From a virus, in the IMG/VR virus record IMGVR_UViG_3300017784_007549, positions 1 through 64,000 of that record: 64,000 nucleotides of DNA; one strand, written 5' to 3'. Of this stretch, positions 19,132-59,265 are shown one piece after another. A model generated the notes under the pieces. The model worked only from the letters and a program-made list of their open reading frames with translations. It did not search any database and was not told the DNA's origin. Numbering within the stretch: position 1 is the stretch's first letter; each line of letters begins with the position of its first letter. The translations under genes and the position numbers were made by a program.

Positions 19132-19133
19132 TT

Positions 19134-34400: not shown

Positions 34401-35264
34401 ATGAAAAAACTAATACCATCAGGATATCAATTTTTAGCAAGTAGCAGAATCGTTAATTTTCCACCATCTCTTTATGGACCTCAAAATCCAGTAGCCCTTG
34501 AAAACCTATTATTGATTACCAATGTAAGCAAAGGACAAATAATATACAATTTTGCAGATTCAACAACTACTGGAGCAGTTAATTCAACTAGCGGATTTTT
34601 ATTGGGTTTTAATACAACCTCAATGGCTAATACTGATAGGTTACAAATATTTTATGATGTGCCAAGTGAAGAGTATGATTTTGCTAGTGGATATTTGACT
34701 GGATATATAACTGGATCTGGAACTAGCACAGGATTATTTTCACCACCAGTTCCAGCTGAATTTTTAGGAGTTGGAGGACGAGCAGTTGATGTAGCTTCTG
34801 GATTTTTCCCTCAATATGGCAGAGGTGCAAATGCAATATTAAATATTGATTCTCAAGGTGGTGGAGCACTAACTCTTCAAGCAGATCTTGATAAAGATAT
34901 TGATAGTGTCACAGCATTTCCTGCGGTTGGTGGTTACGCTAGTAATTATTCTATTCAAACTGGTGTTGGATCAATACTCAGCGGCAATAATAGTAGACTT
35001 GGTTGGGGTATTACTAATTATGGCACAGGAAATATTTATCTTAAATTTGGCGCAGGAGCAACAGTAACAACTGGCGTTAGTTTTGGGGTAACTGGTGCTA
35101 TTATAACTGGCAGTAGTTTTAATTTAATATTAAAAGGTGGAAATACTGAATTTGATAATAATGGCGGAAGCTTTATTGATTTTACCCCAAAGTATAATGG
35201 CCCAGTTAGCGTTGCTCAATATCCTAATGTTAATATTAAATATATTTCTTGGGAACTAGTTTAA
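34401..35264 (+). CDS. Virion structural protein
   Basis: LLLITNV...IIYNFAD N-terminal domain; GTGTAA at 34380. Confidence 0.65.
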   Translation: MKKLIPSGYQFLASSRIVNFPPSLYGPQNPVALENLLLITNVSKGQIIYNFADSTTTGAVNSTSGFLLGFNTTSMANTDRLQIFYDVPSEEYDFASGYLTGYITGSGTSTGLFSPPVPAEFLGVGGRAVDVASGFFPQYGRGANAILNIDSQGGGALTLQADLDKDIDSVTAFPAVGGYASNYSIQTGVGSILSGNNSRLGWGITNYGTGNIYLKFGAGATVTTGVSFGVTGAIITGSSFNLILKGGNTEFDNNGGSFIDFTPKYNGPVSVAQYPNVNIKYISWELV

Positions 35265-39652: not shown

Positions 39653-40330
39653 ATGCCTCTTACAAAAGCTACACTTTCAGTTCCTCCTCTTAATGCATCA
39701 ACAACATTTAGAAGATTCGCTGCGGTTTCTGGAGTTACAACACAACTTATTTATTATTATACATTATTCGCGCCACCAGCTTCAAATTCTGGTTTAATTA
39801 TGCCAAACTGGATAAGTACAGAAATCGGGGGAACTTGGACTGGTAATATTAGTATAGATGTGCTCATGACTGCTTCGGCTGGAGCTGGAGCTACAGTAAA
39901 AATGAGAGGCAACCAAGGGGTAACCACAACTGGCGGAGGAATTACCGCTAGTAATGGTCCTTATTTTATAGCTTGGTCTGGTGGAATAACGCTAGCCCAA
40001 GACGATGTAATTGTCGGCAATGTTACTGGGGCGAGTGGGAAAGTTTTCAAAAGTGGCGCTGGTCTTACTGATACTTGGCTATACGATTTATCTGGAAACT
40101 TATTCTCGACAGCAGATACTAATTTTACAGTAAATGGGGTTTCTTCTGGAGCAGCTATTACTAATACTGCCTTTGGCGCAAGTCCAGCGGTAGGAATTTA
40201 TTTTACACCAGCTCCAGCTAATCTTGCTGACAAGAACGCTGGTTTTTATTCGCCATTTATTTTCAATAAAGGTAGAACAATGGACGCAACCTCAATTGTT
40301 CAATTCTCCTATTCTGGATTTGCAGTTTAA
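39653..40330 (+). CDS. Gly/Thr/Ala-rich virion protein
   Basis: 225-aa ORF with AGGAG SD. Confidence 0.65.
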   Translation: MPLTKATLSVPPLNASTTFRRFAAVSGVTTQLIYYYTLFAPPASNSGLIMPNWISTEIGGTWTGNISIDVLMTASAGAGATVKMRGNQGVTTTGGGITASNGPYFIAWSGGITLAQDDVIVGNVTGASGKVFKSGAGLTDTWLYDLSGNLFSTADTNFTVNGVSSGAAITNTAFGASPAVGIYFTPAPANLADKNAGFYSPFIFNKGRTMDATSIVQFSYSGFAV

Positions 40331-40445
40331 TTGAGTTAATATTTTAATAATTATATATTTATTCTAACACAGTTACTCTTATTTTCTACTATTATTGGTT
40401 AATATATTTTTTAATTTAATATTTATATAGTGTAATATCTATTAT

Positions 40446-41087
40446 ATGACCAATAAAATTGTAGATATATCAGATGAAATTTATCGCGAATTAGGCGAGC
40501 CAAGTGATATTAGCATCCCTAGCATAGCTTTTTGGCTAAGAACGAATTTGGGCAAATTAAACATTTTAATTAATAAAAGATACACCATAAATACTCTAGA
40601 CCTAGAAGTAGATGCTATCAGTCCAGAAACATTCACAATAATAGAAAAATCAATCCTTAAGAAAATGTATAATATACATTATTATGATAGACAGATTATT
40701 AAATTAATAGGAAAATCTAGTGCTTTAAATTTAATCAATCAAGATACTTCTTCTAGTGGAGAAAACGCTACAACTGGGTCAGCTAACTCTGATAGTCTAG
40801 AAATTTCAGAAAATGGATTCTCATATAAGAAAACTAATAGCGAAAGCACAAGTCAAATTTATAAAAGAGCAACAGATGCTATTAAAGCAAATACTCAATT
40901 TGTAAGGCAGTTAGGTTTAAATTTTGTTGAACTTAAAAAGCAAGAAGTTTCAGAATTAAAAATGTTAACTCAAAGTTATAATTTAAATGAAGTTAGTCCA
41001 TTGCAAATTGCTGGAGACGATACTATTGTAGCTAATGATAGACCTTATACTTATAATTCATTTGTAAGAAATATAGAAAATTTATAA
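40446..41087 (+). CDS. Putative head-tail adaptor/neck protein
   Basis: First gene of the neck-tail block; GTGTAA at 40430. Confidence 0.5.
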   Translation: MTNKIVDISDEIYRELGEPSDISIPSIAFWLRTNLGKLNILINKRYTINTLDLEVDAISPETFTIIEKSILKKMYNIHYYDRQIIKLIGKSSALNLINQDTSSSGENATTGSANSDSLEISENGFSYKKTNSESTSQIYKRATDAIKANTQFVRQLGLNFVELKKQEVSELKMLTQSYNLNEVSPLQIAGDDTIVANDRPYTYNSFVRNIENL

Positions 41088-41091
41088 AACT

Positions 41092-41535
41092 ATGGCATCT
41101 TTAATAAGTGCAGCAGAAATTAATAATTATCATAACGCCATAAATGATCATTTTGACACATTTAAAAGACAAATTACAGTTCATAAAGAACCCATAAAAA
41201 ATATAACTCAAAAGACTACAAATCAATTGCTAGGTTATCAAGAAGATTCTAATATTGTAGATTATACATATATTCCTCGTAATGAATCTTTTGATGCCAT
41301 TATAAGTTACGATGTTAAAGCAGAAAATTTACTGTTAGATAACGAATTGAAATTAAAATTTCCAAATCAATTAGTAGAAATAAAAGTTAAACAATTAGCA
41401 AGAGACTATATCAATAATGATGCAACAGAAAAAATAACATTTGATAATAAAAATTTTAATCTTGTAAGCTCAGATGTTATCAAAAATTATCAAGGACTTG
41501 TGTATTACGCATTTTATTTAAAGGAAACAAGATAA
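41092..41535 (+). CDS. Putative head-closure protein
   Basis: Size, beta-rich composition and position. Confidence 0.45.
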   Translation: MASLISAAEINNYHNAINDHFDTFKRQITVHKEPIKNITQKTTNQLLGYQEDSNIVDYTYIPRNESFDAIISYDVKAENLLLDNELKLKFPNQLVEIKVKQLARDYINNDATEKITFDNKNFNLVSSDVIKNYQGLVYYAFYLKETR

Positions 41536-42092
41536 TGGGCAAAGTAAATTTTAATGTTAAAAATGCCATAGAAGAAATTGAAGCATTTCAAGAAAAAGTA
41601 GAAGAAGTTGCCTATGAAAAATATCAAGATGGCAAAGAAAAGTTTTTAGATGATTTTGAAAATCATCCAGTCACTCAAGAAATAGAAGCTGGAGGAGGGG
41701 CATCAAATTCTTCAAATACTTTAAATGGAGTTGGCAATTTATTTAGTTATATTGGTTTTTATCAAAATCAAAATCCAATATCAGATCTTAAAAAAATATT
41801 AAATGAAAATTTTAGTTTCAAAAAAAAGGGTAAAAATGTATTTGTAATAAAATACCCAGATTTAGAAAAAATTAAATCTCAAACTCCTATGCCTTGGGAA
41901 GGCGGAAGAAGCTGGGTTATTGGAATAGAAAGAGGTATATCTGGTTTTGGATATTATTTGTATAAAAAATTCAACGAAGGCAGATCAAAAGAAGGTATTC
42001 AAACTCAAAATAAAGTTAGAAGCTCTTCTTTTAAAAAAGTAAGATATATGTCAGAAATTATAAACAATTTTGTAAAGAATATAAATAAATGA
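41535..42092 (+). CDS. Putative tail completion/neck protein
   Basis: Position; TAATG coupling. Confidence 0.45.
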   Translation: MGKVNFNVKNAIEEIEAFQEKVEEVAYEKYQDGKEKFLDDFENHPVTQEIEAGGGASNSSNTLNGVGNLFSYIGFYQNQNPISDLKKILNENFSFKKKGKNVFVIKYPDLEKIKSQTPMPWEGGRSWVIGIERGISGFGYYLYKKFNEGRSKEGIQTQNKVRSSSFKKVRYMSEIINNFVKNINK

Positions 42093-42928
42093 AAGCGCAA
42101 TTAGATAATGTTTTAATGTCTAGTATGATAATGTGGATGGATAATACTATACTTAAAAGAGGCGAAGCTTTTCAAAATTACAATAGTCAATTTTATCCTA
42201 TTACAAATATTTATAATGGATTTTATAGTTATGGATTACCATTTAAACAAGTAGTTAATGATAGCTCTATTAGTGGTGCTAATTTATTATCTGGAGTTTA
42301 TGTTAATAATTCATTTATTACAATTGGCCAAAGTGGATTAACTGGGATTAGTCCTTATCAAGGTCAAGCATATTTTACTGAAAGTCAAGCTGGCAAAACA
42401 ATTAGTGGTACTTATGCTGTAAAAGATTTTAATATATATTTAACAAATCAATCAGAAGAAGAACTATTATTTGAAACAGAATATAGGACTAAACCAAAAA
42501 CTACTCAAAATCCAACAGGACTAGCTATTGAAGCTATAACTTATCCTTGCATATTCCTTAAAAATAACGGCGGTACTAATGAACCATTTGCCTTTGGAGG
42601 CCAAGATCAGACTATGATGGAAGTTAGGGCTGTAGTTTTAGCTGATAATATGTTTAATTTAGATGCTGTTTGTAGTCTGTTAAAAGATACAGCTAGAAAA
42701 TATGTACCATTAATTAATAATAGCCCATTTAATACTTTTGGAGCATTAAATAGCGGATATTATAACTATAATAGTTTAACAGCAGGAATTGATGTATCTA
42801 ATGACGCTTTTTATATCACAGAAGTTAATATTAGCAAAATATTTGCTAATTTAAATACAAAAAATACCCAAGTATTTCCAGCCTTTGTAGACTTTACTTT
42901 AAGTAATATACGCTATCCAAGGTGTTAA
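42089..42928 (+). CDS. Putative tail terminator protein
   Basis: YPCIFLK...EPFAFGG pattern; directly before the tail tube gene. Confidence 0.5.
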   Translation: MKAQLDNVLMSSMIMWMDNTILKRGEAFQNYNSQFYPITNIYNGFYSYGLPFKQVVNDSSISGANLLSGVYVNNSFITIGQSGLTGISPYQGQAYFTESQAGKTISGTYAVKDFNIYLTNQSEEELLFETEYRTKPKTTQNPTGLAIEAITYPCIFLKNNGGTNEPFAFGGQDQTMMEVRAVVLADNMFNLDAVCSLLKDTARKYVPLINNSPFNTFGALNSGYYNYNSLTAGIDVSNDAFYITEVNISKIFANLNTKNTQVFPAFVDFTLSNIRYPRC

Positions 42929-42994
42929 AAACAACTTCTCTTGATATGAGATTAACTGTAATAAAAGACAAGACTTCAAAGGAGAAATAAAAAT

Positions 42995-44077
42995 ATGCCA
43001 AGAAAAAGAGTAATTTATCAAAGTGAAGCGCTTTTCGTAGGAGCTACAGGAGCCGCAACACCAACACAACTTCACAGAGTTCAAAACGCAAATTATGGTT
43101 TCGATATCACAAGAACAGACGTTAATCAATACGGACAATTAGCCGCAATTGATCGCGTTATCGTTGAACAACCAACAGTAAGTTTAGATTTTAGTTATTA
43201 TGCTAGTTCTGGTCAGAATGAACAAGCTTTGGGTTTCTTTTTAGGAACTACAAAAGGTGCTTTGGCTGATATCCTTTCTGGTGGAAGAGATATTAATAAT
43301 TATTATATTTATGTTTCTCCAGAAGGCTCAGATGCAAATATTGATACAAGTGCAACAGGCTTAAATGGATCTCAAGGTCGAGTAATTGGTATTGGTAATG
43401 GTGGTTTAACATCTTATTCAATCGAAGCTGCAGTTGGAGGTTTCCCAACTGTATCAGTTGCCGCCGAAGGATTGAATATGAAATTCTATGGAGCAACAAC
43501 AGGTTTTACACCTGATGTAAACCCTACTGATGGTTCTGCAAATAGCGCAAGCACATTCGCAATTCCATTGCCGAACACAGGAGTTGGATACACTGCACTT
43601 CGCCCCGGAGATATCTTGTTAAATATTTCTGGTCTTGGCGTAAATGCAAGTGATTTAAAAATTCAAAACTTCTCACTATCAACTGATATTGGTCGTGATT
43701 CAATTCAAAAATTGGGAAGCAAGTTTGCTTTCTCAAGAGAAATTACATTCCCAGTTGTAGTCTCAGCTAGTGTAGAAGCTATTATCGGTGATATCGGTGG
43801 AACTGATAATATTGGTAATGCTTTAACAGACCTTAGTTGTAACGACGGAAGTAGCTACAATCTAACATTTAACCTTGGTGCTCCAAGTAATAATTGTGAT
43901 ACTAGCTATACTCCATATGCATTACAATATACCTTAAAAGGTGCTAAATTAGATTCACAATCATTTAGCTCTGCAATCGGTGATAATAAATCCGTAACAT
44001 TGGGTTTCAGTGCTCAAATCGGTGGACCTAGTGATCTAAATAAAGGATTATTTATTGCTAATAACTTGGCAAGTTAA
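42995..44077 (+). CDS. Major tail (tube) protein
   Basis: 360 aa, Ser/Gly/Thr-rich; GGAG SD; followed by a strong terminator; upstream of chaperones and TMP. Confidence 0.7.
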   Translation: MPRKRVIYQSEALFVGATGAATPTQLHRVQNANYGFDITRTDVNQYGQLAAIDRVIVEQPTVSLDFSYYASSGQNEQALGFFLGTTKGALADILSGGRDINNYYIYVSPEGSDANIDTSATGLNGSQGRVIGIGNGGLTSYSIEAAVGGFPTVSVAAEGLNMKFYGATTGFTPDVNPTDGSANSASTFAIPLPNTGVGYTALRPGDILLNISGLGVNASDLKIQNFSLSTDIGRDSIQKLGSKFAFSREITFPVVVSASVEAIIGDIGGTDNIGNALTDLSCNDGSSYNLTFNLGAPSNNCDTSYTPYALQYTLKGAKLDSQSFSSAIGDNKSVTLGFSAQIGGPSDLNKGLFIANNLAS

Positions 44078-44105
44078 TATCTTAAAATAAAATTTAAATA
44101 TTACT

Positions 44106-44130
44106 AAGACCCCGCGAAAGCGGGGTTTTT
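44106..44130 (+). terminator. Rho-independent terminator
   Basis: aagaccccgc-gaaa-gcggggttttt. Confidence 0.9.
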
Positions 44131-44172
44131 AGTGTAAAGATAGATAAGGCACAAGGAAAAGATTAAAGGCTT

Positions 44173-44460
44173 ATGGAAACAGATCCTAAACTTAAGGAAT
44201 TTCTATTATTTCAAGTACATAGAAATATTACCTCTCTTTATAAGAGATATCTTAATTTAATAGAAGATATCCAAGAAGAGCATATTAATATGCTTAATAA
44301 ATTGAATAGTAAAATAGACCAAGAGACATTAAAAAATGTTGATTATTTTGATGATAATAAGTATAATTATTTAAGGAAAAAAATATTAGATTTAGGAAAT
44401 GAAACATCAAGAGATATAATCAAAAATTTTGAACTTTTAAGTATAGAAATAAAAAAATGA
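44173..44460 (+). CDS. Hypothetical protein
   Basis: 95-aa ORF; GTGTAA at 44132. Confidence 0.7.
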   Translation: METDPKLKEFLLFQVHRNITSLYKRYLNLIEDIQEEHINMLNKLNSKIDQETLKNVDYFDDNKYNYLRKKILDLGNETSRDIIKNFELLSIEIKK

Positions 44461-44714
44461 AAACTAAATTAGTATTTAATTATCCTATTGAGGAAACTTT
44501 ATCAGCCGTATTGTCTATGCAAACTATACAAAGGACTCTTGAGAAAGAGTTTAAGATTAAATATTTTAATTTTGAATCTTTTATCAAAAGCAAGTCGTTG
44601 CAATATATAAAGACTTGGGATTTAGAAAAGCAAAATAAATTTATTAGGACAATTGGTGGAGTTAAGAACTTTAATAAAACTAAAGACTTTTTGAAATCTA
44701 AGAGTTTGCTATAA
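44457..44714 (+). CDS. Hypothetical basic protein
   Basis: 85-aa ORF with ATGA overlap. Confidence 0.6.
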   Translation: MKTKLVFNYPIEETLSAVLSMQTIQRTLEKEFKIKYFNFESFIKSKSLQYIKTWDLEKQNKFIRTIGGVKNFNKTKDFLKSKSLL

Positions 44715-44723
44715 GGAGAAAAA

Positions 44724-45512
44724 ATGAAATGGCTACATGAATTTGCAGTAAATGACGAAAAAGAAGTCGAACAAATTGAAAGTTCAATTGACGTTCAAGG
44801 TAATGAAGTCAAGACCACCAAAAAAGTTAAAAAAATTGTTCAACTTAAATTTAAGATACGAAAACCAACAAGAAAATTATTCGATGAAGCAGAGTTATTT
44901 TATGGTATCAAATTATCAGAAGGAATTAAAGCTGGTCTATTGACAAAAGCTCTTCTTGCTAAAAGATATCAAAATGATGGTGGAGCTATGAGTGAACCAG
45001 AAAAAGACAAGTATACTCAACTTTATGTTGACCTTTATTCTAAAGAAGCAGAGTTCCAAAAAGTATCACTTAATTTAGAGAATGTTTCCCCAGAAGATAA
45101 AGCCTCAAAGGTCGCTAGTTTATTGGGTGAACTTATTGAAATCCGTAATCAACTACAAACTTTAGAATTCTCTCAAATAGCATTATTTGATCAAACCGCA
45201 GAGAATAGAGCAAGAAATCAATGCATTATGTGGTGGGTTTTGAATCTTGGTTACATTGAAGATCAAGAAATAAATGATTTTTCTCCAGTGTTTAAGGGCA
45301 AAACATTTGAAGAAAAACTTGATCATTATGATTCTTTAGAAGAGTCTGGTGGTTTATTTTGGAATGAAGTATTTAAAAAATTAGCTTATTTTATAAGTTT
45401 CTGGTATATGGGTAAAATATCTTCTCAAGAAGACTTTCTTAAAGCAGAGCAATTTTATATACCAACTCAAAAAGAACTAGAAGAAGACGCAAAAGTAAGT
45501 GACGCTAAATAA
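44724..45512 (+). CDS. Putative tail assembly chaperone
   Basis: Between tube and TMP genes; AGGAG SD; helical and acidic. Confidence 0.5.
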   Translation: MKWLHEFAVNDEKEVEQIESSIDVQGNEVKTTKKVKKIVQLKFKIRKPTRKLFDEAELFYGIKLSEGIKAGLLTKALLAKRYQNDGGAMSEPEKDKYTQLYVDLYSKEAEFQKVSLNLENVSPEDKASKVASLLGELIEIRNQLQTLEFSQIALFDQTAENRARNQCIMWWVLNLGYIEDQEINDFSPVFKGKTFEEKLDHYDSLEESGGLFWNEVFKKLAYFISFWYMGKISSQEDFLKAEQFYIPTQKELEEDAKVSDAK

Positions 45513-46500
45513 TGAATATAGATTTTTAAGAAAATTATATAAAGATATTCTTTTAGGATATTCTTATGTAGCTTCTGAAAAAATTTATATCAAACATCCA
45601 TATGAAGTGGATCTTGGATCAATAGAAGATCTTTACATTCAACATTTTAATGAAGCTAAAATTCGTGGGCTTGCAGACGAAAAAGATAAAATAAAAGAAT
45701 TATGCGAAGCTGAATTGTGGACTGAAGAAAAAGAAAAAAAGATAGTTTCGAATAAAAAAGAAATTTCCAACTTAAGAGATACAATTAGAAAACTTTTCAT
45801 TAAAAGTCAAGTTAATTCAGTAAATAATAAAATTAAAAGCATAGAACAAGAATGCCAAACTATAGAAAAAGAAAGAGAAGAACTTATTGGTATAACAGCT
45901 GAAAAATACGCTAATAAAAGATCAAATGAAATGATTATCTATAGATCAATATTTAAAGATGAAAATTTAAAAGAAAATCTATTCACAGAAGAAACTTTTG
46001 ATGAGCTTGATAGTAATGAACTTAAAAAATATATCATGATATATAACACAATCACAGAATACTTTAACCAAAAGAACATTAAGAAAATAGCTGCATTACC
46101 ATTCTTTTTAAATACAATATTCTTAACAGAAGATAATATATATACGTTCTATGGTAAACCTATAGTAAGTTTGTCTACATTTCAATTAGATTTATTTTCT
46201 AATGCTAGAATTTATAAAAATATATTATCAAAAGGTGTTGCTCCGCTTGAAGAATACTATCAGAATCTTGATGATCTTATTAATTGGTATGAACTTAATA
46301 AGAACATAGGTAGTGCTTCAGAAGTTAAGCATAGAACTAAAAATACAGATGGCGCAACCTACATTGGCGCTTCTAGAGACGAAATTAAGACAATTAATCA
46401 ATTTGATAGTAAAGATGAAATAGTAGATATATCAAAAGAAGCAGAAAAACAAGGTGGTGAACTTAGCATGCAAGATATAATAAAATTACATGGATTATAA
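45499..46500 (+). CDS. Putative tail assembly chaperone II/hypothetical protein
   Basis: 333-aa ORF directly upstream of the TMP gene. Confidence 0.5.
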   Translation: MTLNNEYRFLRKLYKDILLGYSYVASEKIYIKHPYEVDLGSIEDLYIQHFNEAKIRGLADEKDKIKELCEAELWTEEKEKKIVSNKKEISNLRDTIRKLFIKSQVNSVNNKIKSIEQECQTIEKEREELIGITAEKYANKRSNEMIIYRSIFKDENLKENLFTEETFDELDSNELKKYIMIYNTITEYFNQKNIKKIAALPFFLNTIFLTEDNIYTFYGKPIVSLSTFQLDLFSNARIYKNILSKGVAPLEEYYQNLDDLINWYELNKNIGSASEVKHRTKNTDGATYIGASRDEIKTINQFDSKDEIVDISKEAEKQGGELSMQDIIKLHGL

Positions 46501-46547: not shown

Positions 46548-49500
46548 ATGGCACAAGGGAATAATCAATTACAGGTTAATGTAGTAGCTAATGTAAGGGC
46601 CGCTCAAGCTGCCATTAATAAATTAGCGGCTAAACCAGTTAATTTGACCATTAATCCTAAAGGATTTAGTCAGCCTTTAGGAAAAATACAAGGGCAATTA
46701 GGTGAATTTGAAAAATCGTTAGAAGCGTCTAACGCTCGTGTTATTGCGTTCGGAGCCTCTGCTAGCGCCATTTACGCTGTTCAAAAAGCCTTTTCAGAGA
46801 GCGTTAAGTCTGCTATTGAAGTAGAAAAAGCTCTGAAAGATATTAACGTTATATTAAATTTAACAGATCAAAGCTTGGGTCAGTTTGGAACAAGTCTTTT
46901 TGATATTGCTAAAAATACAGGTAATACATTTTCAGCAGTTGCCATAGCCGCTACAGAATTATCTCGTCAAGGTTTAGGAGTTAATGAAACTTTAAAAAGA
47001 ACTCAAGATGCTCTTATATTAACTCGTCTTTCTGGATTAGGTGCGGCTGAATCTGTAGAAGCAATTACAGCTACTCTTAATGGTTTCCAAAAAGCAGCTT
47101 TATCATCTACAGATGTTATCAATAAATTAGCCGCAGTTGATGCCAATTTTGCTGTTAGCTCTGGTGATTTAGCTGAAGCTATTAAAAGAGTTGGTAGTAG
47201 CGCAGAAGATGCAGGAGTTAGCTTTGATGAACTTCTTGCTATTGTAACTTCTGCTCAACAAATTACTGCGCGAGGTGGTTCAGTTATTGGTAATAGCTTT
47301 AAAACAATTTTTACAAGACTACAAAGACCAAAAGTTTTAGAAGATTTACAACAATTAGGAATTGAAACTCAAACTGCAGAAGGCAACACAAAGCCTTTAA
47401 TCCAAATTTTAAGTGATCTCGCAAAAACATTTGATGTTTTGAACGATAGTCAAAGAGCAGCTATTGCAGAACAAGTCGGTGGTGTTTTCCAAATTAATAT
47501 TTTAAAAGCTGCGTTAGGAGATTTAAACAAAGAATATTCGGTTTTTTCTAATGCTTTGAAAACTTCTACTGGTGCAACTGACGAAGCTATAAGAAGAAAT
47601 GAAGCTTTAAATACAACTCTTGCATCATTAATAAATAAAACTCTAGCTAATTTAACTGCAGCTGGGGCAAAAATTGGTGAATTAAGTCTTGCTCCAGCCT
47701 TAAAAAAAGTTTTTGGTGGATTGAATACTGTATTAGAAAGTTTTGGAAGTGGCGATAGTGAAGATTTTGGTTCTAAAATTGGAGAAGGTTTACTTAAAGG
47801 CATAGGAAACTTTTTAAGTGGTCCGGGTATTATTATTGCAACAAAAGCTTTATTTAGTATTTTTGAAAGATTAACTGTATTCTCAGCAGATGCAGTTAAA
47901 ACTCTTTTAGGGTTAAATGTGCAAGCAACTCAGCAAGCTCAAATTCAACAACAAATAAATACTTTATTAAGTCAAAATCCATCAATTATAGCTCAAATTG
48001 TCAGTGGACAAACTACCTTACAAGATATACAAGATAATATTTTGAATACAATTAAAGCTCAAACTCTTGCGATGGAACAACAAGTAACCTTATCAAAAGC
48101 TTTAGCTACATCATTAAGTGCAGCTGGAGTTTCTATTGGTGCTTCTGGAGCAACTAAAGGGAGATTGCAAGCTAAAGCTGGTGGATACATGCCAAATGCA
48201 TTCAAGCAAGAAGAAGCTAGTGCCATGAATTTGGGCGCAGTAAACCCAAAAGCTCAATTTTCAAAAGGTACAATTGGTGGCAAAAAATTTATTAAAAATA
48301 ATAAAGAAATTGAAATTCCTAATTTTGGTAAAAATGGAGATTCAGCAGTTATTCCAATGTATGGATCAGTTGGTGATAAAAGACAAAAAGAACTTTATGA
48401 TAAATTAAAGTTTTTGGGATTTGTGCCAAATTTTGCGCAATTAGAAGATATTGAATTAAAAGGATATCAAAAGAAGGTTGGTGTTTTATTAGGAACTGGC
48501 GGATCTGGTCTTGTAGATTATACAGAACCTGCTTCACAAATTCCTGCACTTAAAGGACAACCTGAATTCAAAGGTAAAAGAATTGTACTTAAAGGTATTC
48601 CTACAAAAGGAGCTTTTCCATTACCAGAAGAAGGAATACAAGGAGCAGAAAAACAATTTGATTCAGTTTTATCCCCATTACTTCGTGATGGTTTGCAAAG
48701 TTTTTCTGAAGCAGTTGGTAAAACAATTCTTGGCAGAAATCCGCAACAAAAACCTAAAGGTGGAGATGTTTATTCTGCATTACAACAAGGAACAAAAGGT
48801 GATATATTTGAATCTGCTGTTCGAGGCGCATTAACAGAAGGGAATTTAGCTGGAGGAGCTGGTCAAGGAGCATTTGACTTTAATCCAAAATCTCCCGCTC
48901 AAAAAGCATTAGTAGATTTTTTTGGTATGGGATTAGGGCCAGATGCTAGAATTGAAAGTAAAATTGGCGCGCAAGCAGCAGAAAATATTCCATCTAAAGT
49001 TATTAGAACATTTACAAACGCATACGCAAATTTAGGAATTACAAAAGAAACAGGAAAAAGAAGTAGCAAAAAACCCGGATTTGGAGCAAAACCTGCCAGA
49101 TTTCAAAATGTATCTGATGGTTTTATTCCTAATTTTTCTAGTGTCAAAGATGCAATGGAAACGGAAAAAAAGATGGGTGGAAGTCCTGCGCTTGATTTCC
49201 AAGAAGGAGTTGGATTATACGTTAGAGATAGAAACACTCAATCTAATTTCTCTGCAGTTAAAAGAGATCATCCAGAAGGTATTAATCAAGCAATAGAAAA
49301 TTCTAGAAAAGCACAAGAAAATCTTGCTAGAGGATTTATCCCTAATTTTGCTTCAACTGCAAGTAGCAATATTGCGAGTAATTCTTCAAATGCTGGAATG
49401 GACGTTCTAAAAAAAGTTTTTTCTGATAAAGAATTACCAAAAGGAATACAAAAATTTAAACAAAATATATTTTTAACTTCATTTGCTTTTTCAACTTTGC

Positions 49501-51824
49501 AAGGGTTAGTAGAATCTTTTAATAAAGATGGAAAAAGTGCATTTGGAAATATTCTTTCTGGCGTATCGCAAGGAGCGTCAACATTTACTTCTCTTGCTGG
49601 AGTTATCCCCGGCCAAGTAGGTTTAATTGTTGGAGCAGTAGCTGGCTTAACTCAAGCTATAGATTCTGTAGCTACAAGCTTTTTAAATGCAGATATTGAA
49701 GAAATAATAAAACAAAGCGCGCAAACTAGTGAAGATTTCAGTAAATTAAGTGATGCAAGTCAAAAATATGCCGTAGCTTTTCAAAAATTACAAGAGATAT
49801 ATAAAAGTAATTCTTCTTATAAAGAAGTTGATAAAGCTGAAAGAGACTTATACGAATCTTTACAAAATATTCCACAAGAATTTAGAAACTTATTTGCTTC
49901 GGCAAGAACTTTAACAGAAGTCCAAGATTTAATATCAAAATCACTTTCAGAAAAAGGAAAAGAAAAAGAAGGCGGAGAATTGGCAAAATTTTTAGGACAA
50001 TCAGTTATTCAAAATAGAGGATCTCCAGTTGGAAGACTTTTAAATTTCGGATCAGCTGGTGGGGCTGAAAAAAATGCAATTTATAGTGGTAAAAAAGGAA
50101 TGAGTTTAGCTACGGAAACCGCGGGACAAATTACGAATAAATTAAGTAGTAAATTTTTAGATGATTTTGAAAATGGATTAATAGATACAACTCAAAGTGG
50201 TTATAATTTTATTAAAATGTTAAAACAATATGGAATTGACGCTCAATCAGCTAGTATATTAACAGGTATATTAGACGACAGTTTACAGGATGGCGAAGGA
50301 ACTACAAAATTATTAGCAAATGCATTATATGAAGAATCTGCAGCGAGAGTACAAGCTATAAAAAAATATAAACAAGGACAAAAAACTAGAGAAGAAGCTC
50401 AGGCAATTGAAGCAGAAGAAGTGAAAATAAAAAGACGTTTAACTGCAGAAACAGAAAATGCTGCGGCTATTTCAGAAATGTATTCAAATGCTCTTCATAG
50501 AACAGCATTACAAGAAAAGAAATTAATTGATATTAGAAGATCGTCTCAATCAGAAATTATTGCTGAAGCTTCTAGATCCAGATTACAAACTGCACAACCG
50601 TTCCTTAGTGAAACAAGTATGGCAAGAGGTCAATATCAAAACGAAGCATTCCAAAGAAAATCTAATTTTCAAACAAAGCAATCGGATATTATGTCTTCTG
50701 CTATTGAACAAATTAGTACTAATTTATCTGAATCTATACAAGGAGAAATAAATAAATTAAGAAGTGAAAATGCACCAAATTCTAAAATTCAAAAATTACA
50801 AAAAAGAAAAGGCGAAATAGCCAATATAGTTCGTCAAGGAGAAAGTCCAGCGCAGATAAGCCAAGCTTTAGAACAATTAGGTCAAGAATTAGCTTTAGAT
50901 GATCAAGCTATTTTAGCTCAAAAAGCAAATGAAATCCTAGCGAACATACAAAATGATCAGCAAAATGCTTTAGTTGAATATCAAAAAGGAAATAATATAG
51001 CACAAGAACAGTTAAGAAATCAATTAATACAAATTCAAGATCAACAAAGATTAAAAGTTGCAGGTGGCGTACAAGGATTTTTAGATCCAAATTCATTCCA
51101 AACTACTTTTGATAATTTTACAAAAAATTTAAATCTATATCGCGAAGAAGGATCAAGATCAGTAATTGCAAGAGGAAGAGGAGCCGCTGGATTACTTTCA
51201 AATACTTTAGATTTTGCAGGAGGAGGATTGCCAATAGGAACTGGTGGAGAATTAGAAGCTTTAAGATCAGAAGCTATTCTTGGAAGAACAGTAGACATAA
51301 GAAATCAATCAAGAGCACTTGGCGCAGATGCTCCGATAGGATTAAGACCAGTATTTAGAGATATCTCTGCAAATGCTAGCGAAATTGCAGCTAAACAAAT
51401 CGACAATTTAATTAAAGATCAAAACATTGGAGATAACGTAGATAAAATAGCCACAACATTACAACAAATTCAAACATCATTAACTCCAAATCTTGGTCCG
51501 ACTAATAATGCAACTCAAAGCTTTGTAAATCAAAGAAATTCAGCTGCAACTAATGTAGCCTCTGCACTACAACCTCTAAAAGGTTCTGTAGATTTAAATA
51601 TACCAAATAATCTTTTAGCTTTGAACGTAAATGGTAAAATATCAGTAGAAGGAGGAAACGTAGAAGTAACATTATCTCCAGATTCTGATCTTACAGCATT
51701 AGTTACTCCAATTATTAATAATTTCATGAATACAGCTAAACAAGATATTAAAAATGAATTTAATAATAGAATATTAAAACTCAGAGAAGAGGCAGGACTA
51801 AGGAGGGAAGCAACAGCAGTATAA
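46548..51824 (+). CDS. Tape measure protein (TP901-like core) with internal G[FY][IMV]PN[FA] repeats
   Basis: 1758 aa, Ala/Leu/Gln-rich helical; ELSRQG, DLAEAIKR.GS.A..AGVSFDEL, GNSFKTIFTRL; GTGTAA at 46530. Confidence 0.9.
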   Translation: MAQGNNQLQVNVVANVRAAQAAINKLAAKPVNLTINPKGFSQPLGKIQGQLGEFEKSLEASNARVIAFGASASAIYAVQKAFSESVKSAIEVEKALKDINVILNLTDQSLGQFGTSLFDIAKNTGNTFSAVAIAATELSRQGLGVNETLKRTQDALILTRLSGLGAAESVEAITATLNGFQKAALSSTDVINKLAAVDANFAVSSGDLAEAIKRVGSSAEDAGVSFDELLAIVTSAQQITARGGSVIGNSFKTIFTRLQRPKVLEDLQQLGIETQTAEGNTKPLIQILSDLAKTFDVLNDSQRAAIAEQVGGVFQINILKAALGDLNKEYSVFSNALKTSTGATDEAIRRNEALNTTLASLINKTLANLTAAGAKIGELSLAPALKKVFGGLNTVLESFGSGDSEDFGSKIGEGLLKGIGNFLSGPGIIIATKALFSIFERLTVFSADAVKTLLGLNVQATQQAQIQQQINTLLSQNPSIIAQIVSGQTTLQDIQDNILNTIKAQTLAMEQQVTLSKALATSLSAAGVSIGASGATKGRLQAKAGGYMPNAFKQEEASAMNLGAVNPKAQFSKGTIGGKKFIKNNKEIEIPNFGKNGDSAVIPMYGSVGDKRQKELYDKLKFLGFVPNFAQLEDIELKGYQKKVGVLLGTGGSGLVDYTEPASQIPALKGQPEFKGKRIVLKGIPTKGAFPLPEEGIQGAEKQFDSVLSPLLRDGLQSFSEAVGKTILGRNPQQKPKGGDVYSALQQGTKGDIFESAVRGALTEGNLAGGAGQGAFDFNPKSPAQKALVDFFGMGLGPDARIESKIGAQAAENIPSKVIRTFTNAYANLGITKETGKRSSKKPGFGAKPARFQNVSDGFIPNFSSVKDAMETEKKMGGSPALDFQEGVGLYVRDRNTQSNFSAVKRDHPEGINQAIENSRKAQENLARGFIPNFASTASSNIASNSSNAGMDVLKKVFSDKELPKGIQKFKQNIFLTSFAFSTLQGLVESFNKDGKSAFGNILSGVSQGASTFTSLAGVIPGQVGLIVGAVAGLTQAIDSVATSFLNADIEEIIKQSAQTSEDFSKLSDASQKYAVAFQKLQEIYKSNSSYKEVDKAERDLYESLQNIPQEFRNLFASARTLTEVQDLISKSLSEKGKEKEGGELAKFLGQSVIQNRGSPVGRLLNFGSAGGAEKNAIYSGKKGMSLATETAGQITNKLSSKFLDDFENGLIDTTQSGYNFIKMLKQYGIDAQSASILTGILDDSLQDGEGTTKLLANALYEESAARVQAIKKYKQGQKTREEAQAIEAEEVKIKRRLTAETENAAAISEMYSNALHRTALQEKKLIDIRRSSQSEIIAEASRSRLQTAQPFLSETSMARGQYQNEAFQRKSNFQTKQSDIMSSAIEQISTNLSESIQGEINKLRSENAPNSKIQKLQKRKGEIANIVRQGESPAQISQALEQLGQELALDDQAILAQKANEILANIQNDQQNALVEYQKGNNIAQEQLRNQLIQIQDQQRLKVAGGVQGFLDPNSFQTTFDNFTKNLNLYREEGSRSVIARGRGAAGLLSNTLDFAGGGLPIGTGGELEALRSEAILGRTVDIRNQSRALGADAPIGLRPVFRDISANASEIAAKQIDNLIKDQNIGDNVDKIATTLQQIQTSLTPNLGPTNNATQSFVNQRNSAATNVASALQPLKGSVDLNIPNNLLALNVNGKISVEGGNVEVTLSPDSDLTALVTPIINNFMNTAKQDIKNEFNNRILKLREEAGLRREATAV

Positions 51825-51855
51825 AATAAACAAGGGATAAGGAATATAAAGGAAT

Positions 51856-53499
51856 ATGGCATATAATTTTACAGACGCAACACTTCTTGGTTACCAAGTA
51901 AATAAAAATTACTTGGGCGAAGGCGTTTTTGCGCTTAGTACAATAAAAAACATTTCTATAGAGGGCATTCTTGATAATAGATTAACCAATTCAGATTCAG
52001 AAGGTGTTAAAGAAAATTTTCAAAAGATATCAGGATTTTTAACTGGTATTGTAAATGCGTATGATGCAGTTATCGTAAATGGTTATAATTTAGGAACAGG
52101 CAAAGTTAACAACTTATCTTTTCCAGACCAAAACCCAATAAGGCTTGGATCATATAAATATGATATAGAAATTGTTGAAAATTCAGACTTTTCTAATATA
52201 CAAACTGGAGATATTTATGGAACTTTTCTTTCTGGAGTAAATGATAAAATTTTAGCATTAGATGAAACTTTAAATTTTGATAATACCGCAAATGGAGACT
52301 ATTCATATAACCACGATCTTAATATTCAATACTATGATACTGGATCTGATTTATTTACTAAATCTAAAAATTTCGCTAATTCTGTTTATAATGATTCTTT
52401 GAAGTTAGGTTTGATTGGTCCATTTTCTGGATTTTATGATGTATTAAAAACAAAGAAAAACTATTTTTCTGAAACGTACGATTTAATAAGTAAACGATGT
52501 GGATTCTCCAAGAAAATTTTAATTAATAAAAATTACAATAATAACTATACAACCACTTTAAATCATACTATTACTTTGGACGCTAATGGAAAAATTTCAG
52601 TAACAGAACAAGGAGTAATTAAAGGTTTAGACAATACCTTAAACTATACAGCAGATAATTATTTTAATACAGAACTAGCAAATTCATATAATAGATGCCA
52701 AGACGTATTTAATGTTTATGTTGAAAAATATGGATTAGGAGCAAAAGATTCATTATTTAATCAACCATTTAATCTTGGAAAAACTTCTGATTGGTTTAAT
52801 AATTCTTTAGAATATAGCGTTAGTTATGTTAATGATCCAGCTTTTGAAGGAAACGTAATCAATACTTACAATATAACAATAAACAAAGACGTACAAGAGA
52901 TTGGAGTTTATACTGAACAAGGCGAAATAATTCAAGTTGGACAAGTCGGAGATATTACAGGACTTAATTTAATTAAAACAAAATATCAAGCCGCAAAAAC
53001 TAGAGCATCTACAAATTATCCAACTTATAAATTAAGAAATAGTTCATTTAGCGCCGGTACCTTAAATTCAAATTCTACTTCAACCTATAACAATAATTTC
53101 TCTTATTCAATAGAAAAAACAAATGATAATTCTATCTTAGAAGGTGATCCTTATTATAAAAGTTTATCTATGAAAATAGATGATCAAAACCCAACTAATA
53201 TGTATAAAGAATATATCATTGCAAATAAAAATCCAAAAAATGTATTATTCTTATTTGGCAATCAAGTAGAAATTGGCAATAGATCCGTTAATATAAATGG
53301 CACTCTTGTAAGATCAACTAATAACTCTTGGAGTACGCCAATAACTTTTCCATTAGCTGATCTTAAAAGCAAAAGTATATCTGGCGCATTAAATCTTATA
53401 TCAAATGATGCTTATATTGATAATATAAACTATAGTTATGATTCAGATAATAATTTTTCATTTAATCTATCAATCAAATATTTAGATAAGGTGGTATAA
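51856..53499 (+). CDS. Tail tip/distal tail protein (putative)
   Basis: Follows the TMP gene; beta-rich; appears paralogous to the next gene. Confidence 0.55.
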   Translation: MAYNFTDATLLGYQVNKNYLGEGVFALSTIKNISIEGILDNRLTNSDSEGVKENFQKISGFLTGIVNAYDAVIVNGYNLGTGKVNNLSFPDQNPIRLGSYKYDIEIVENSDFSNIQTGDIYGTFLSGVNDKILALDETLNFDNTANGDYSYNHDLNIQYYDTGSDLFTKSKNFANSVYNDSLKLGLIGPFSGFYDVLKTKKNYFSETYDLISKRCGFSKKILINKNYNNNYTTTLNHTITLDANGKISVTEQGVIKGLDNTLNYTADNYFNTELANSYNRCQDVFNVYVEKYGLGAKDSLFNQPFNLGKTSDWFNNSLEYSVSYVNDPAFEGNVINTYNITINKDVQEIGVYTEQGEIIQVGQVGDITGLNLIKTKYQAAKTRASTNYPTYKLRNSSFSAGTLNSNSTSTYNNNFSYSIEKTNDNSILEGDPYYKSLSMKIDDQNPTNMYKEYIIANKNPKNVLFLFGNQVEIGNRSVNINGTLVRSTNNSWSTPITFPLADLKSKSISGALNLISNDAYIDNINYSYDSDNNFSFNLSIKYLDKVV

Positions 53500-53500
53500 A

Positions 53501-55117
53501 ATGGCTGATACAATTATAAAATATAATAATAAAACAATACCATTTCCAACGCCACTAGTTACGTTAGAAAGAGAAAATCTTTACTATAATCAATACTGGG
53601 GAAATTCTGATAAAATTGTTTTAAATGGACAAATTAGTGGCACAAAAAATTGTTCTCCATTTGCTTCAATAACGAGTGGTCAAACTGGACTGTTAGGCAT
53701 ATTTAATCAAAATTTTGGAACTTTTGAAATATATGAAGATGCACAAAAAATTTATGAAAATAGTGGCATCATAGTAAGATCTATAAATTTTAATGAATCT
53801 ACTTATGCAGGATTAATAGATTATACAATAGAATTAAATTCAACTAGACCTAGTGGCGATATTATTGATCCAAGTAATGAATATAGTTTTACTGAAAATG
53901 AAAATAAAACAGTATCTTTATCTCATAATGTTTCCGCTAAAGGAATCAACACAAATTTAAATCCAAGCAAATCTAATGCAATAAATAATGCTATATCTTT
54001 TGTTAGATCTAATACTGGGCTAGCAAATGTTCCAACTACTAAATTTATATCTGGAGCAAGCAATAAATTTTATTTACAGAATTTTTCTGAATCAATAGAT
54101 AGATTGAATAATGTCTATTCTGTTCAAGAAACCTATCTTAGCAATCTTTTAAATACAGGATCATCTGGTAGTTTAACTTATACTTCCGATATAACATCTG
54201 GCGCAGATTCTAATATAGTTCAAATCAATTTACGTGGACAATATAAAGGCCAAAAGAACGGTAATATAAATGATTTAAGAAATAGTTTAAATGTAACTGG
54301 ACTATTATCTGGAATCTATTCTGGTTATTATAATCCAACCCCAATTCAGTATAATGTAACAGAAAATACTGGCGAAAATTTAATTAATTTTGATTATTCT
54401 TTTGATAATTTAAACCTTCCTAATCCATACTTTAAATATGATGCAAATATATCTAGAGATGAAATTCAACAACTTTACAATATTCAAGTAAGAGGAGATA
54501 TTATAGCAAGAGGCAATAGGGCTTATAGATATTTCTTATCAACGGGAAATTTAATCAATTTAACTGGTCAATTATTAAGTGTCGCTAGTGGTATTTTAAC
54601 TGGATTTAAAGACTTTAATAGTGATGCAGTGCCTTCTAATTTGAGATTATTAAATGTAAGTATTGATCAAAATCCTAATAACGGCACAGTTTCAGCAAAT
54701 GCATCGTATGATGATAGATTTATGCCTACTGGTAATTTTGTTGATGCTACTTATAATGTGTCAGTAGAAGCGCCTCATTGGTATATGAATAATCAACCAA
54801 CTTGCAATATTAAGGGTTATCACATAATAAATGATTTTGATATTACGACTTTACCTAAATTAAATATTAATACTACATTTAAAGCTAAAGATATCAAAGG
54901 AACAAGCACTGAATCTGGTTTAAAGCAGTTAGCCTCAACTCTTACAAATAATCTTGTTCCAACTAATTATAATTATAATACTCAATTAAAAGCTACTGAA
55001 TCGTATAATAAAAAATATAATAATATGACCTCATTAAGCGAAATATCTTATAAATTAGACAAAATAGATATTTCTAATGAAAATTCTTTACTACCAAAAT
55101 TCAATACTATAACTTAA
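53501..55117 (+). CDS. Tail tip/hub protein (putative)
   Basis: Position; similarity to the previous gene. Confidence 0.55.
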   Translation: MADTIIKYNNKTIPFPTPLVTLERENLYYNQYWGNSDKIVLNGQISGTKNCSPFASITSGQTGLLGIFNQNFGTFEIYEDAQKIYENSGIIVRSINFNESTYAGLIDYTIELNSTRPSGDIIDPSNEYSFTENENKTVSLSHNVSAKGINTNLNPSKSNAINNAISFVRSNTGLANVPTTKFISGASNKFYLQNFSESIDRLNNVYSVQETYLSNLLNTGSSGSLTYTSDITSGADSNIVQINLRGQYKGQKNGNINDLRNSLNVTGLLSGIYSGYYNPTPIQYNVTENTGENLINFDYSFDNLNLPNPYFKYDANISRDEIQQLYNIQVRGDIIARGNRAYRYFLSTGNLINLTGQLLSVASGILTGFKDFNSDAVPSNLRLLNVSIDQNPNNGTVSANASYDDRFMPTGNFVDATYNVSVEAPHWYMNNQPTCNIKGYHIINDFDITTLPKLNINTTFKAKDIKGTSTESGLKQLASTLTNNLVPTNYNYNTQLKATESYNKKYNNMTSLSEISYKLDKIDISNENSLLPKFNTIT

Positions 55118-55118
55118 T

Positions 55119-56927
55119 ATGAAATTAGAATTTATAACAGGATATTTAAGCGATAACCAAAGAAATACAGGTTCATTAGAAATTTATTATGATTTTAGTG
55201 GAATATCTGGTTTTTTCGTTCCTAATAGGTTATATGGAAATCAAACTCAATTTAATAAAATAGGGGGTGGATTTACTGCCAATAGTGAGTATCATCCCGG
55301 AATTTTCGTATCATGTTACCAACAAAGTGGGTTTACTGGCTCTGGAATTTTCGAAGGAACAAATAACCTCAAAGTACTAAATCAACTGAGTGGAAATAAT
55401 TTGAGTTTGTTTTATAATTTTGGTGCATTAAATTGTAATAAAAATTTTTCAATAGGACCAAAACAAATAAATATACCAACTGGTCAAATTCAAGTTTTAA
55501 GTTATATTGAATCTGCTAGTTCGAACAATAATCCTTTTGAAATGATCTTGGGTTTAAATGACGCTTATAAATTAACATTAGAATTTTCTGGCAAAATTAA
55601 TAATAGTTCTGTTGAAAATTATAAGTTAACAAACGTCAGCGAATTATCTTTTCAAAATGTTGGAACCCTAAGATTAAATGATAAAAATGTAGAGTTCACA
55701 TATTTTGATATAATTGAAGATGAGATTTATAATAAAATTTTAAATTTAACTGGATCATATTTTAATCAAGATAAAAATATTTATATAGGGAATATACCTA
55801 CTGGAAAATATAGAAATGGATATACTGGATTTATTGGAATTGTAGATGATTTTGTTGCATTTGATGAATATTTTGATGCTAATTTTTGCGCAGGGCTTTC
55901 AAGACTCTTTGTGAAAACTGGAAATAGAGTTGAAACATTAAATTTAACTGGAGTTAAATATAATATAATACAAAGTGGTTTTTTAAATCCAACTGGCATC
56001 TTAGGAACAGGAATTACTGGATATCAAATTGTAGCTTCTAATGAAATTATAAATTCTAGTTGTGGAGATAATTGCATTGTTTATGTTAAATCTGGAATAA
56101 CAGGATTAATTACTGGAGAAAAAATAGAATATCGTGTTGTTGGACAAGAAGAATATACAACAATACAAAAACAAATAAAATACAATTTATATGATCAAGA
56201 TTATGCTGCAAGATTTACAAAAGATTATATAGTATTCACGCCTCAATTAGATAGTAAAGATGTATTTAATATTCAATTATATAAAGATGTTGATACTAAA
56301 GTAGAAGTACCAGATTACGCTATTTTAAGTAAAAATTATTTAACACAAGATACTTTGACGGATAGAAATCTATTAATATTTTTCAATGGAGTAAATATTT
56401 CTTCTGGTAGTTATCAAATAATTGGAAGTGATACAAGATTTATTATAAATAATTATGATAAAGACTCTAAAGATTTTGTATCTTATAGTTTATCTAGTTT
56501 TTCAGATATAGAAAATTATCTTTTTAATTTTGATGATAATGATCCTGCGGTTGGAAATTACATTCTTATAACTAATCTAAATAATAAAAAATATGATGTA
56601 TTCTTAAATGGTCAAAAATTAGTATCTGGACTTAATTATATAAATTCTGGAATAAATAATTCTTTATATTTGAATAAAAATTTACCAGATGGGACATTAT
56701 ATATTACTCAAGACAATTTTGATTATGAAGTAACTGGTTCAAATTTAAAATTATATCATTCTACCGAAAATTATAATAATGAAAGAATTTGGCTAAATGG
56801 CATTTTCCAAAACAAAAATGAAAATTACTTATTAACTTCTTGTATTAATGCTATGCTTCAAGCCACTGGTGATATTGAAGCTAAAGATGAAAGTATATTC
56901 AATAATGAATACTATAGATTTATTTAA
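55119..56927 (+). CDS. Tail tip protein with a LamG-like N-terminal region
   Basis: LEIYYDFSG...IYIGN...GFIGIVDDF; VFLNGQKL repeats. Confidence 0.5.
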   Translation: MKLEFITGYLSDNQRNTGSLEIYYDFSGISGFFVPNRLYGNQTQFNKIGGGFTANSEYHPGIFVSCYQQSGFTGSGIFEGTNNLKVLNQLSGNNLSLFYNFGALNCNKNFSIGPKQINIPTGQIQVLSYIESASSNNNPFEMILGLNDAYKLTLEFSGKINNSSVENYKLTNVSELSFQNVGTLRLNDKNVEFTYFDIIEDEIYNKILNLTGSYFNQDKNIYIGNIPTGKYRNGYTGFIGIVDDFVAFDEYFDANFCAGLSRLFVKTGNRVETLNLTGVKYNIIQSGFLNPTGILGTGITGYQIVASNEIINSSCGDNCIVYVKSGITGLITGEKIEYRVVGQEEYTTIQKQIKYNLYDQDYAARFTKDYIVFTPQLDSKDVFNIQLYKDVDTKVEVPDYAILSKNYLTQDTLTDRNLLIFFNGVNISSGSYQIIGSDTRFIINNYDKDSKDFVSYSLSSFSDIENYLFNFDDNDPAVGNYILITNLNNKKYDVFLNGQKLVSGLNYINSGINNSLYLNKNLPDGTLYITQDNFDYEVTGSNLKLYHSTENYNNERIWLNGIFQNKNENYLLTSCINAMLQATGDIEAKDESIFNNEYYRFI

Positions 56928-56963
56928 TAGTGTAAATATAGATAGGTATAAGGAGCAAGGTTC

Positions 56964-59264: not shown

Positions 59265-59265
59265 T

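Follow-up and report, generated by a model that had tools for sequence, protein, structure and literature searches.

Exchangeable, motif-headed modules inside the tape measure protein of a family of uncultured phages

Introduction

Tape measure proteins (TMPs) are usually seen as passive rulers, sometimes carrying a wall-degrading motif. Here, we describe a TMP encoded in a stretch of viral DNA of 64,000 nucleotides (positions 1 to 64,000 of the IMG/VR record IMGVR_UViG_3300017784_007549, hereafter the window), which comes from a 109-kb record with a G+C content of about 30%. In the middle of this protein, a short peptide of the form G[FY][IV]PNF recurs and delimits three successive modules, named here A, B, and C, of which B is the large one. 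A sequence-only reading of the window had taken these segments for swappable cargo injected with the DNA, had likened B to a PD-(D/E)xK nuclease, and had seen in the whole a polymorphic effector system. A full-text literature search for the motif found no relevant paper.

With the TP901-1-type TMPs (PF10145), this protein shares the N-terminal core, great length, a largely helical remainder, hydrophobic segments, and a place among tail genes; to our knowledge, the members described so far have neither a repeated fencing peptide nor a recombining block of modules in the middle of the protein. A non-ruler functional domain inside a protein ejected before the DNA is a feature that it has in common with TM4 Mt3 (PMC1796659) and T5 pb2 (bioRxiv 10.1101/2022.09.20.507954). 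The domains of Mt3 and pb2 belong to known muralytic families, whereas B matches no family, carries nuclease-like residues, is fenced by a peptide, and is exchanged as a unit. When the literature on TMPs with nuclease domains or processing was searched, only the known muralytic precedents were found.

In polymorphic toxins, such as CdiA with its VENN motif and Rhs proteins with PxxxxDPxGL, a short conserved peptide marks the boundary of the variable domain. The TMP resembles them in its conserved delivery scaffold, its boundary peptide, and the replacement of a variable domain by recombination among close relatives; in contrast, polymorphic toxins use unrelated toxin folds and have the variable part at the C-terminus, whereas the B slot is internal and holds alleles of one family. 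Polyvalent proteins of phages and conjugative elements are likewise large and virion-borne, bring several effector domains into the cell at invasion, vary by recombination, and may release their domains by autoproteolysis (Iyer et al., 2017; PMC5512222). Their survey has 0 occurrences of tape measure proteins, none of its domain families was detected in the TMP, and a universal fencing peptide is not known to be among the features that it describes. What is new here is the combination of a TMP with embedded functional domains and a modular exchange like that of polymorphic toxins.

Modules and their exchange at the fencing motif

We are highly confident that the TMP of the window represents a family in which the middle of the protein is a block of independently exchangeable modules, in the order small-B-small, each headed by a motif that is selected as a peptide, with B as an ancient and near-universal component whose alleles recombine exactly at the motifs. 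Translation of 46548-51824 gives the four motif copies that the sequence-only reading had located (Table 1), far above the chance expectation from the TMP's own composition (0.0003 copies per TMP, and 0.02 over the six frames of the window), and the motif is absent from every other open reading frame (ORF) or frame of the 109-kb genome. The expected module sizes were also recovered, with 78 and 71 amino acids (aa) after copies 1 and 3, where about 70 had been foreseen, and 234 aa between copies 2 and 3 (about 230 foreseen). As for a suspected partial copy, the string IPNF does occur at aa 591 (near 48315), but it is specific to the close clade, with EIVGMG and the like at this place in relatives, and on this ground it is not a motif copy. 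Copy 1 is a decaying copy of the motif: 13 of the 22 close relatives have GYMPSA in its place, and more distant ones have GF[IV]PN[LF].

Table 1. Features of the tape measure protein gene in the window (coordinates in nucleotides of the window; aa, residues of the protein).
Feature	Coordinates	Strand	Details
Tape measure protein gene (TMP), P0001	46548..51824	+	ORF of 1758 aa; PF10145 and PHROG matches
PhageMin_Tail (PF10145) core, aa 121-312	46908..47483	+	Pfam match
Hydrophobic segment 1, aa 422-445	47811..47882	+	Kyte-Doolittle 19-aa peak 1.44; kept in family consensus; upstream of module block
Motif copy 1, GYMPNA, aa 546, degenerate	48183..48200	+	Close relatives GYMPSA/DA/TA
Module A, 78 aa, small-module family c2	48183..48416	+	Cluster c2, 39 copies
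Motif copy 2, GFVPNF, aa 624	48417..48434	+	Six relatives lose DNA homology at aa 629-631
Module B, 234 aa, family c1: variable N-subdomain and conserved charged core	48417..49118	+	113/120 TMPs
B core with G751, F754, E755, D777, F792, E803 (D/E), K805, K817	48798..48998	+	Kept in 94-100% of 111 modules
Motif copy 3, GFIPNF, aa 858	49119..49136	+	The same six relatives regain DNA homology at aa 857/858
Module C, 71 aa, small-module family c0	49119..49331	+	Cluster c0, 170 copies
Motif copy 4, GFIPNF, aa 929	49332..49349	+	Translated ORF
Hydrophobic segment 2, aa 1016-1042	49593..49673	+	Kyte-Doolittle peak 1.87; kept in family consensus; downstream of module block

The exchange itself is seen most directly in close relatives. 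A group of TMPs (P0009-P0023) is 94-95% identical to that of the window over the N-terminus (aa 1-545), 85-92% in module A, and 73-82% in module C, and in B the identity falls to 24% or becomes undetectable; three others (P0006-8) have an N-terminus only 62% identical, a B module 65-68% identical, and a different, c0-type A module. Module A is exchanged independently of B, and module C is 60-89% identical to that of the window in most relatives. Across 5,886 TMP pairs, 233 combine N-termini at least 90% identical with B modules below 35%, and 71 show the opposite arrangement, with N-termini at most 66% identical and B at 55% or more. At the DNA level, where modules A and C are about 80% identical, homology to six relatives stops at the end of motif 2 and returns at the start of motif 3 (Table 1), and protein identity computed in ten-residue bins shows the same step at the motifs. 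In the maximum-likelihood tree of B, monophyly of the 19 TMPs with N-termini at least 90% identical was rejected by the approximately unbiased (AU) test (delta lnL 716, p-AU 8.7e-6). At 50% identity, B falls into 35 allele classes, four of them within the close clade, and three of these four recur in backgrounds 58-84% identical. Per-module identities, DNA breakpoints, and the AU test thus bear out the earlier expectation that the segments between motifs vary while their flanks are conserved, and that the motifs are the boundaries of exchangeable modules: TMPs that are otherwise nearly identical differ in their B, and the junctions fall precisely on motifs 2 and 3.

The family was assembled through a search with aa 530-960, which returned 250 TMPs of 1.0-3.1 thousand aa, all metagenomic, of which 120 were retrieved for analysis. 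Among these, the motif stands at homologous places (around residues 545, 628, 890, and 965), and longer TMPs hold up to nine strict copies. The logo from 434 distinct contexts is [AS]-x-G-[FY]-[IV]-P-N-F-[AS], with G, P, and N invariant and A or S preferred at -2 and +6. In 165 loci, the motif is restricted to TMP ORFs, and not one TMP gene among 162 loci is split at a motif, indicating that the modules are never encoded separately. As a separate observation, two TMP-like proteins (P0122 and P0127, 1451-1591 aa) start just before the module block, without the 545-aa PF10145 part; these short forms may be contig-end cuts or truly split forms.

When the 120 TMPs were cut at the motifs and the pieces clustered, 36 families were obtained, the main ones being c1 (module B; 219-400 aa, 113 copies), c0 (module C; 52-139 aa, 170 copies), and c2 (module A; 65-78 aa, 39 copies). 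The usual layout is N(545)-[c0|c2]-c1-c0-rest, and in long TMPs further c0 copies lie close to the C-terminus. Between c0 and c2, similarity is limited to the first 20 residues or so, comprising the motif followed by a short acidic stretch. No Pfam match was found for 44 small modules, no PDB match for the small-module profile, and neither Pfam nor PDB matches for module C. Contrary to the idea of a slot for diverse cargo, the B position is occupied in 113 of 120 TMPs by one ancient, divergent family with a single conserved residue set. Consequently, the proposal of a polymorphic effector system stands as regards the boundary peptide and the replaced domain, but not as regards unrelated folds in the B slot; unrelated module families do occupy extra slots in other TMPs.

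In the clustering, up to seven different motif-fenced modules follow one another in some TMPs. Several related TMPs (P0058, P0079, P0068, P0083) contain six to eight motif-fenced modules of families not present in the window (c10-c14, c21, c27, c28), none of them matching Pfam, and P0068 has two B modules. In eight module-rich relatives, Pfam recognized only PF10145, plus PF01832 in one of them. P0073 (at aa 2145-2277) and about 20 other long relatives (2.7-2.9 thousand aa) carry a PF01832 glucosaminidase in the C-terminal half, which is not motif-fenced.

Conserved core and predicted fold of module B

The residue strings that had evoked a nuclease, GDIFESAV, AFDF, and IESK, were found within B at aa 751-758, 775-778, and 802-805, respectively. 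In an alignment of 111 non-redundant B modules, only 19 columns are at least 60% conserved, and within this background G751, F754, and K805 are kept in 100% of the modules, D777 and K817 in 99%, and E755 in 96% (D in the other 4%), while position 803 is D in 77% and E in 22%. That an E..D..(D/E)xK set stays invariant while the family as a whole diverges so widely speaks for a site of catalysis or metal binding. Apart from this one acidic/lysine constellation, in which K817 lies 12 residues after K805, the sequence of B is almost free to vary.

Structure prediction with AlphaFold2 (AF2) was poor when 11 sequences were aligned (predicted local distance difference test, pLDDT, 57), and reached a pLDDT of 83.6 and a predicted template modeling score (pTM) of 0.72 with 78 sequences. 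The model runs from four N-terminal strands through a long helix, the FE helix, the Asp strand, a further helix, and the ExK strand to helices that include K817; E755 lies on helix 124-139 of the model, D777 at a one-residue strand, and E803-x-K805 on strand 178-182. Features shared with PD-(D/E)xK nucleases are the Glu on a helix, the Asp at a strand, a (D/E)xK on a strand with interchange of D and E, and a basic residue on the next helix. The linker before motif 3 has a pLDDT of 56-59 over 30 residues, in agreement with the general arrangement, in which a flexible, Lys/Arg-rich linker precedes the motif and a structured module follows.

The B model matched no solved fold (Foldseek against PDB, best E 0.9; VIA-align wide; BFVD, best E 0.14), and the B sequence alone had no match in PDB. 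Weak GTPase matches were rejected, the Gly-rich loop not being conserved in relatives. Plant lectins of the hemopexin fold, retrieved with the B profile from PDB at E 3e-5, were likewise rejected as a motif-level resemblance, their score being the sum of two repeat matches (E 0.3-1.4) over the G.iFE..idAA stretch. In a phmmer search of 1.84 billion representatives, B gave 10 matches, all of them TMPs or fragments with the motif.

Proposed mechanism and alternative explanations

We propose for B the role of a metal-dependent enzyme with phosphodiesters as substrates. It would most likely be a nuclease, with an unusual or new topology, and would leave the tail together with the TMP and end on the cytoplasmic side of the membrane channel. 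The module block has a net charge of +12 and is bracketed by hydrophobic segments 1 and 2; under the positive-inside rule, this position between two conserved segments would make B cytoplasmic, and the membrane-span-like segments together with the charge of the block suggest a defined membrane topology of the ejected TMP. Factors of the host or of prophages may bind the TMP as it is injected, and an arms race with them would account for the rapid turnover of B. In this regard, the defence nuclease SNIPE is reported to associate with TMPs during injection (bioRxiv 10.1101/2025.11.03.685801), and the rapid exchange of B is in keeping with an arms race at entry. Concerning the motif, a single peptide at the head of about 30 unrelated module families probably serves a common partner rather than the fold of each module. 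It could serve for docking or registration, either of the three unfolded TMP chains as they are packed or of a chaperone, or alternatively be a processing site, cut by a protease or by Asn-driven self-cleavage; our data suggest docking/registration and processing as the two best-supported readings. Taken as one statement, the observed modules, motif, and exchange joined to the enzyme, location, arms race, and motif role proposed above make a plausible account, which we put forward tentatively.

Several results weigh against this account. The three carboxylates and two lysines of B could serve another chemistry or a structural salt-bridge network, and the model follows a helix(E)-short strand(D)-helix-strand((D/E)xK) order in which beta1 and the beta2-beta3 hairpin, both part of the canonical PD-(D/E)xK core, are missing. 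Comparison of 42 diverse B modules with Pfam at E up to 5 gave zero families, the B profile listed no nuclease in PDB at E up to 10, the ESM Atlas returned only noise for B (scores <=0.84), and no homologue of B standing on its own, within 113-676 aa, turned up when the profile was used to look for one. Furthermore, nothing other than the positive-inside rule places B in the cytoplasm, and the Asn of copy 1 is lost in most close relatives, which shows that an intact motif is not required for a junction to persist. With respect to the resemblance to a PD-(D/E)xK nuclease, then, the residue pattern holds in 96-100% of 111 modules, whereas in the searches made the confident model matched neither a nuclease nor any other solved fold, members of that superfamily gave neither structural nor profile matches, and the predicted topology lacks their beta-hairpin core. 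The nuclease reading of B derives from the residue pattern and seems to us possible but doubtful; membership in the PD-(D/E)xK superfamily is not established.

Other roles have been considered for the motif. If it were a DNA-level recombination signal, a conserved 18-nt site for cassette exchange, homology breakpoints should coincide with it, as they do in six comparisons; nevertheless, the third codon positions of 327 copies in 92 ORFs vary roughly like those of the same amino acids elsewhere in the genes (for Gly codons GGT/GGA/GGC/GGG, 0.41/0.39/0.11/0.09 in the motif vs. 0.36/0.39/0.16/0.09), the largest codon bias being that of CCT (0.63 vs. 0.32), and the flanking A and C modules offer much longer homology for ordinary recombination. 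Since synonymous positions behave roughly like the background, selection acts on the peptide and not on an 18-nt DNA site, and a recombination signal, one of the roles suggested earlier, is largely refuted and extremely improbable. Cleavage, the other role suggested earlier, would be carried out by a protease of the phage or the host, or would be an Asn-mediated self-cleavage at PN|F, and would free A, B, and C in the host after tail assembly or ejection. Lambda gpH and T5 pb2 are examples of TMPs that undergo processing, and self-cleavage driven by Asn is found in penetration proteins of nodaviruses, tetraviruses, and reoviruses. The invariance of G, P, and N over the 434 contexts with A/S at -2 and +6, the flexible, basic, low-confidence linker before the motif with a structured module behind it, and the use of one peptide ahead of so many unrelated families, as expected for one common enzyme or chemistry, all agree with such a role. 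However, no protease gene was recognized near the TMP (Pfam and PHROG, 20 neighbor genes), the 162 loci yielded no split TMP genes, and the junction at copy 1 is kept in most close relatives despite the loss of Asn, which leaves cleavage rather unlikely. The broader version, in which the TMP would be a tail-delivered polyprotein with a self-cleaving or protease-read G[FY][IV]PNF and B an injected new-fold nuclease with alleles traded as in polymorphic toxins, is quite improbable.

For B itself, an unlikely alternative is that of a non-catalytic specificity or evasion domain, which would bind an inner-membrane or periplasmic DNA-entry factor, or be seen by superinfection-exclusion or defence proteins, with the charged residues in a structural role. 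Its allele classes and lateral exchange do resemble those of host-range determinants, its predicted fold has no enzymatic relatives, and host systems are reported to contact TMPs at injection; against this, a diversifying binding surface is expected neither to keep seven residues at 96-100% amid drift nor to let D and E replace each other two positions ahead of an invariant K, a pattern typical of catalytic or metal sites. B might also be a new type of cell-wall-degrading enzyme with a Glu-Asp acid/base pair, flanked by wall-binding small modules. TMPs with peptidoglycan hydrolase motifs are an established precedent (PMC1796659), and the small-catalytic-small order resembles binding-catalytic-binding layouts; nonetheless, no lysozyme, transglycosylase, amidase, or peptidase family matches (PF10145 is the only Pfam family found in the TMP of the window), and the two invariant lysines and the (D/E)xK spacing are atypical of glycosidases. 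Moreover, many relatives have, besides B, a PF01832 glucosaminidase as a distinct domain far downstream, so that the muralytic function probably does not reside in B, and this explanation is very unlikely.

Whatever the activity of B, the TMPs of this large group of uncultured phages from freshwater and the sea, which enter the cell before the DNA, have a standard peptide "socket" for the exchange of whole modules, and one of the modules exchanged, B, combines a strictly conserved catalytic-type site with no known relatives. If B is an enzyme working at genome entry, it would represent a new class of first-strike phage function, and host defences that target TMPs at injection would likely have their counterpart in it. 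The fencing peptide also suggests a natural rule for designing cargo insertions in phage proteins that are ejected, as well as a simple signature to find such TMPs in metagenomes.

Genomic context

The TMP of the window is assigned to the TP901 family on the basis of its PF10145 match (110.8 bits over aa 121-312, gathering cut-off 33.2) and of twelve PHROG tape-measure families, the best at 1.8e-48. It is the sole gene of its region with a clear identity, and large tail-type ORFs lie downstream. A tblastn search with the A-B-C block against 50,697 phage records gave zero matches, so that no cultured relative is known for this block, and among GTDB genomes it was found in three short contigs of metagenome-assembled genomes (MAGs) only. 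For none of the 20 ORFs of the structural region (39653-46500 and 51856-62049) did Pfam give a family above cut-off or PHROG one with a known function, the single named match being phrog_5838 (virion structural protein) for 34401-35264. The scarcity of family matches among tail-region ORFs indicates a lineage very poorly covered by current family libraries. PF08774 gave no match in the phage's own genome.

The two relatives with long flanks, L001 and L002, have upstream genes collinear with those of the window, and no obvious partner gene, such as an immunity gene, is exchanged along with B. Protein identity to the window is 70-83% for their upstream tail genes and for the TMP's N-terminal half, and only about 30-40% for the C-terminal half of the TMP and the large tail genes downstream. 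This marks a second and larger mosaic boundary, which lies within the module block or directly behind it (window 49350-62049 vs. L001/L002). Upstream of the structural genes, two very large ORFs of 1620 and 1214 aa occupy 14269-22778.

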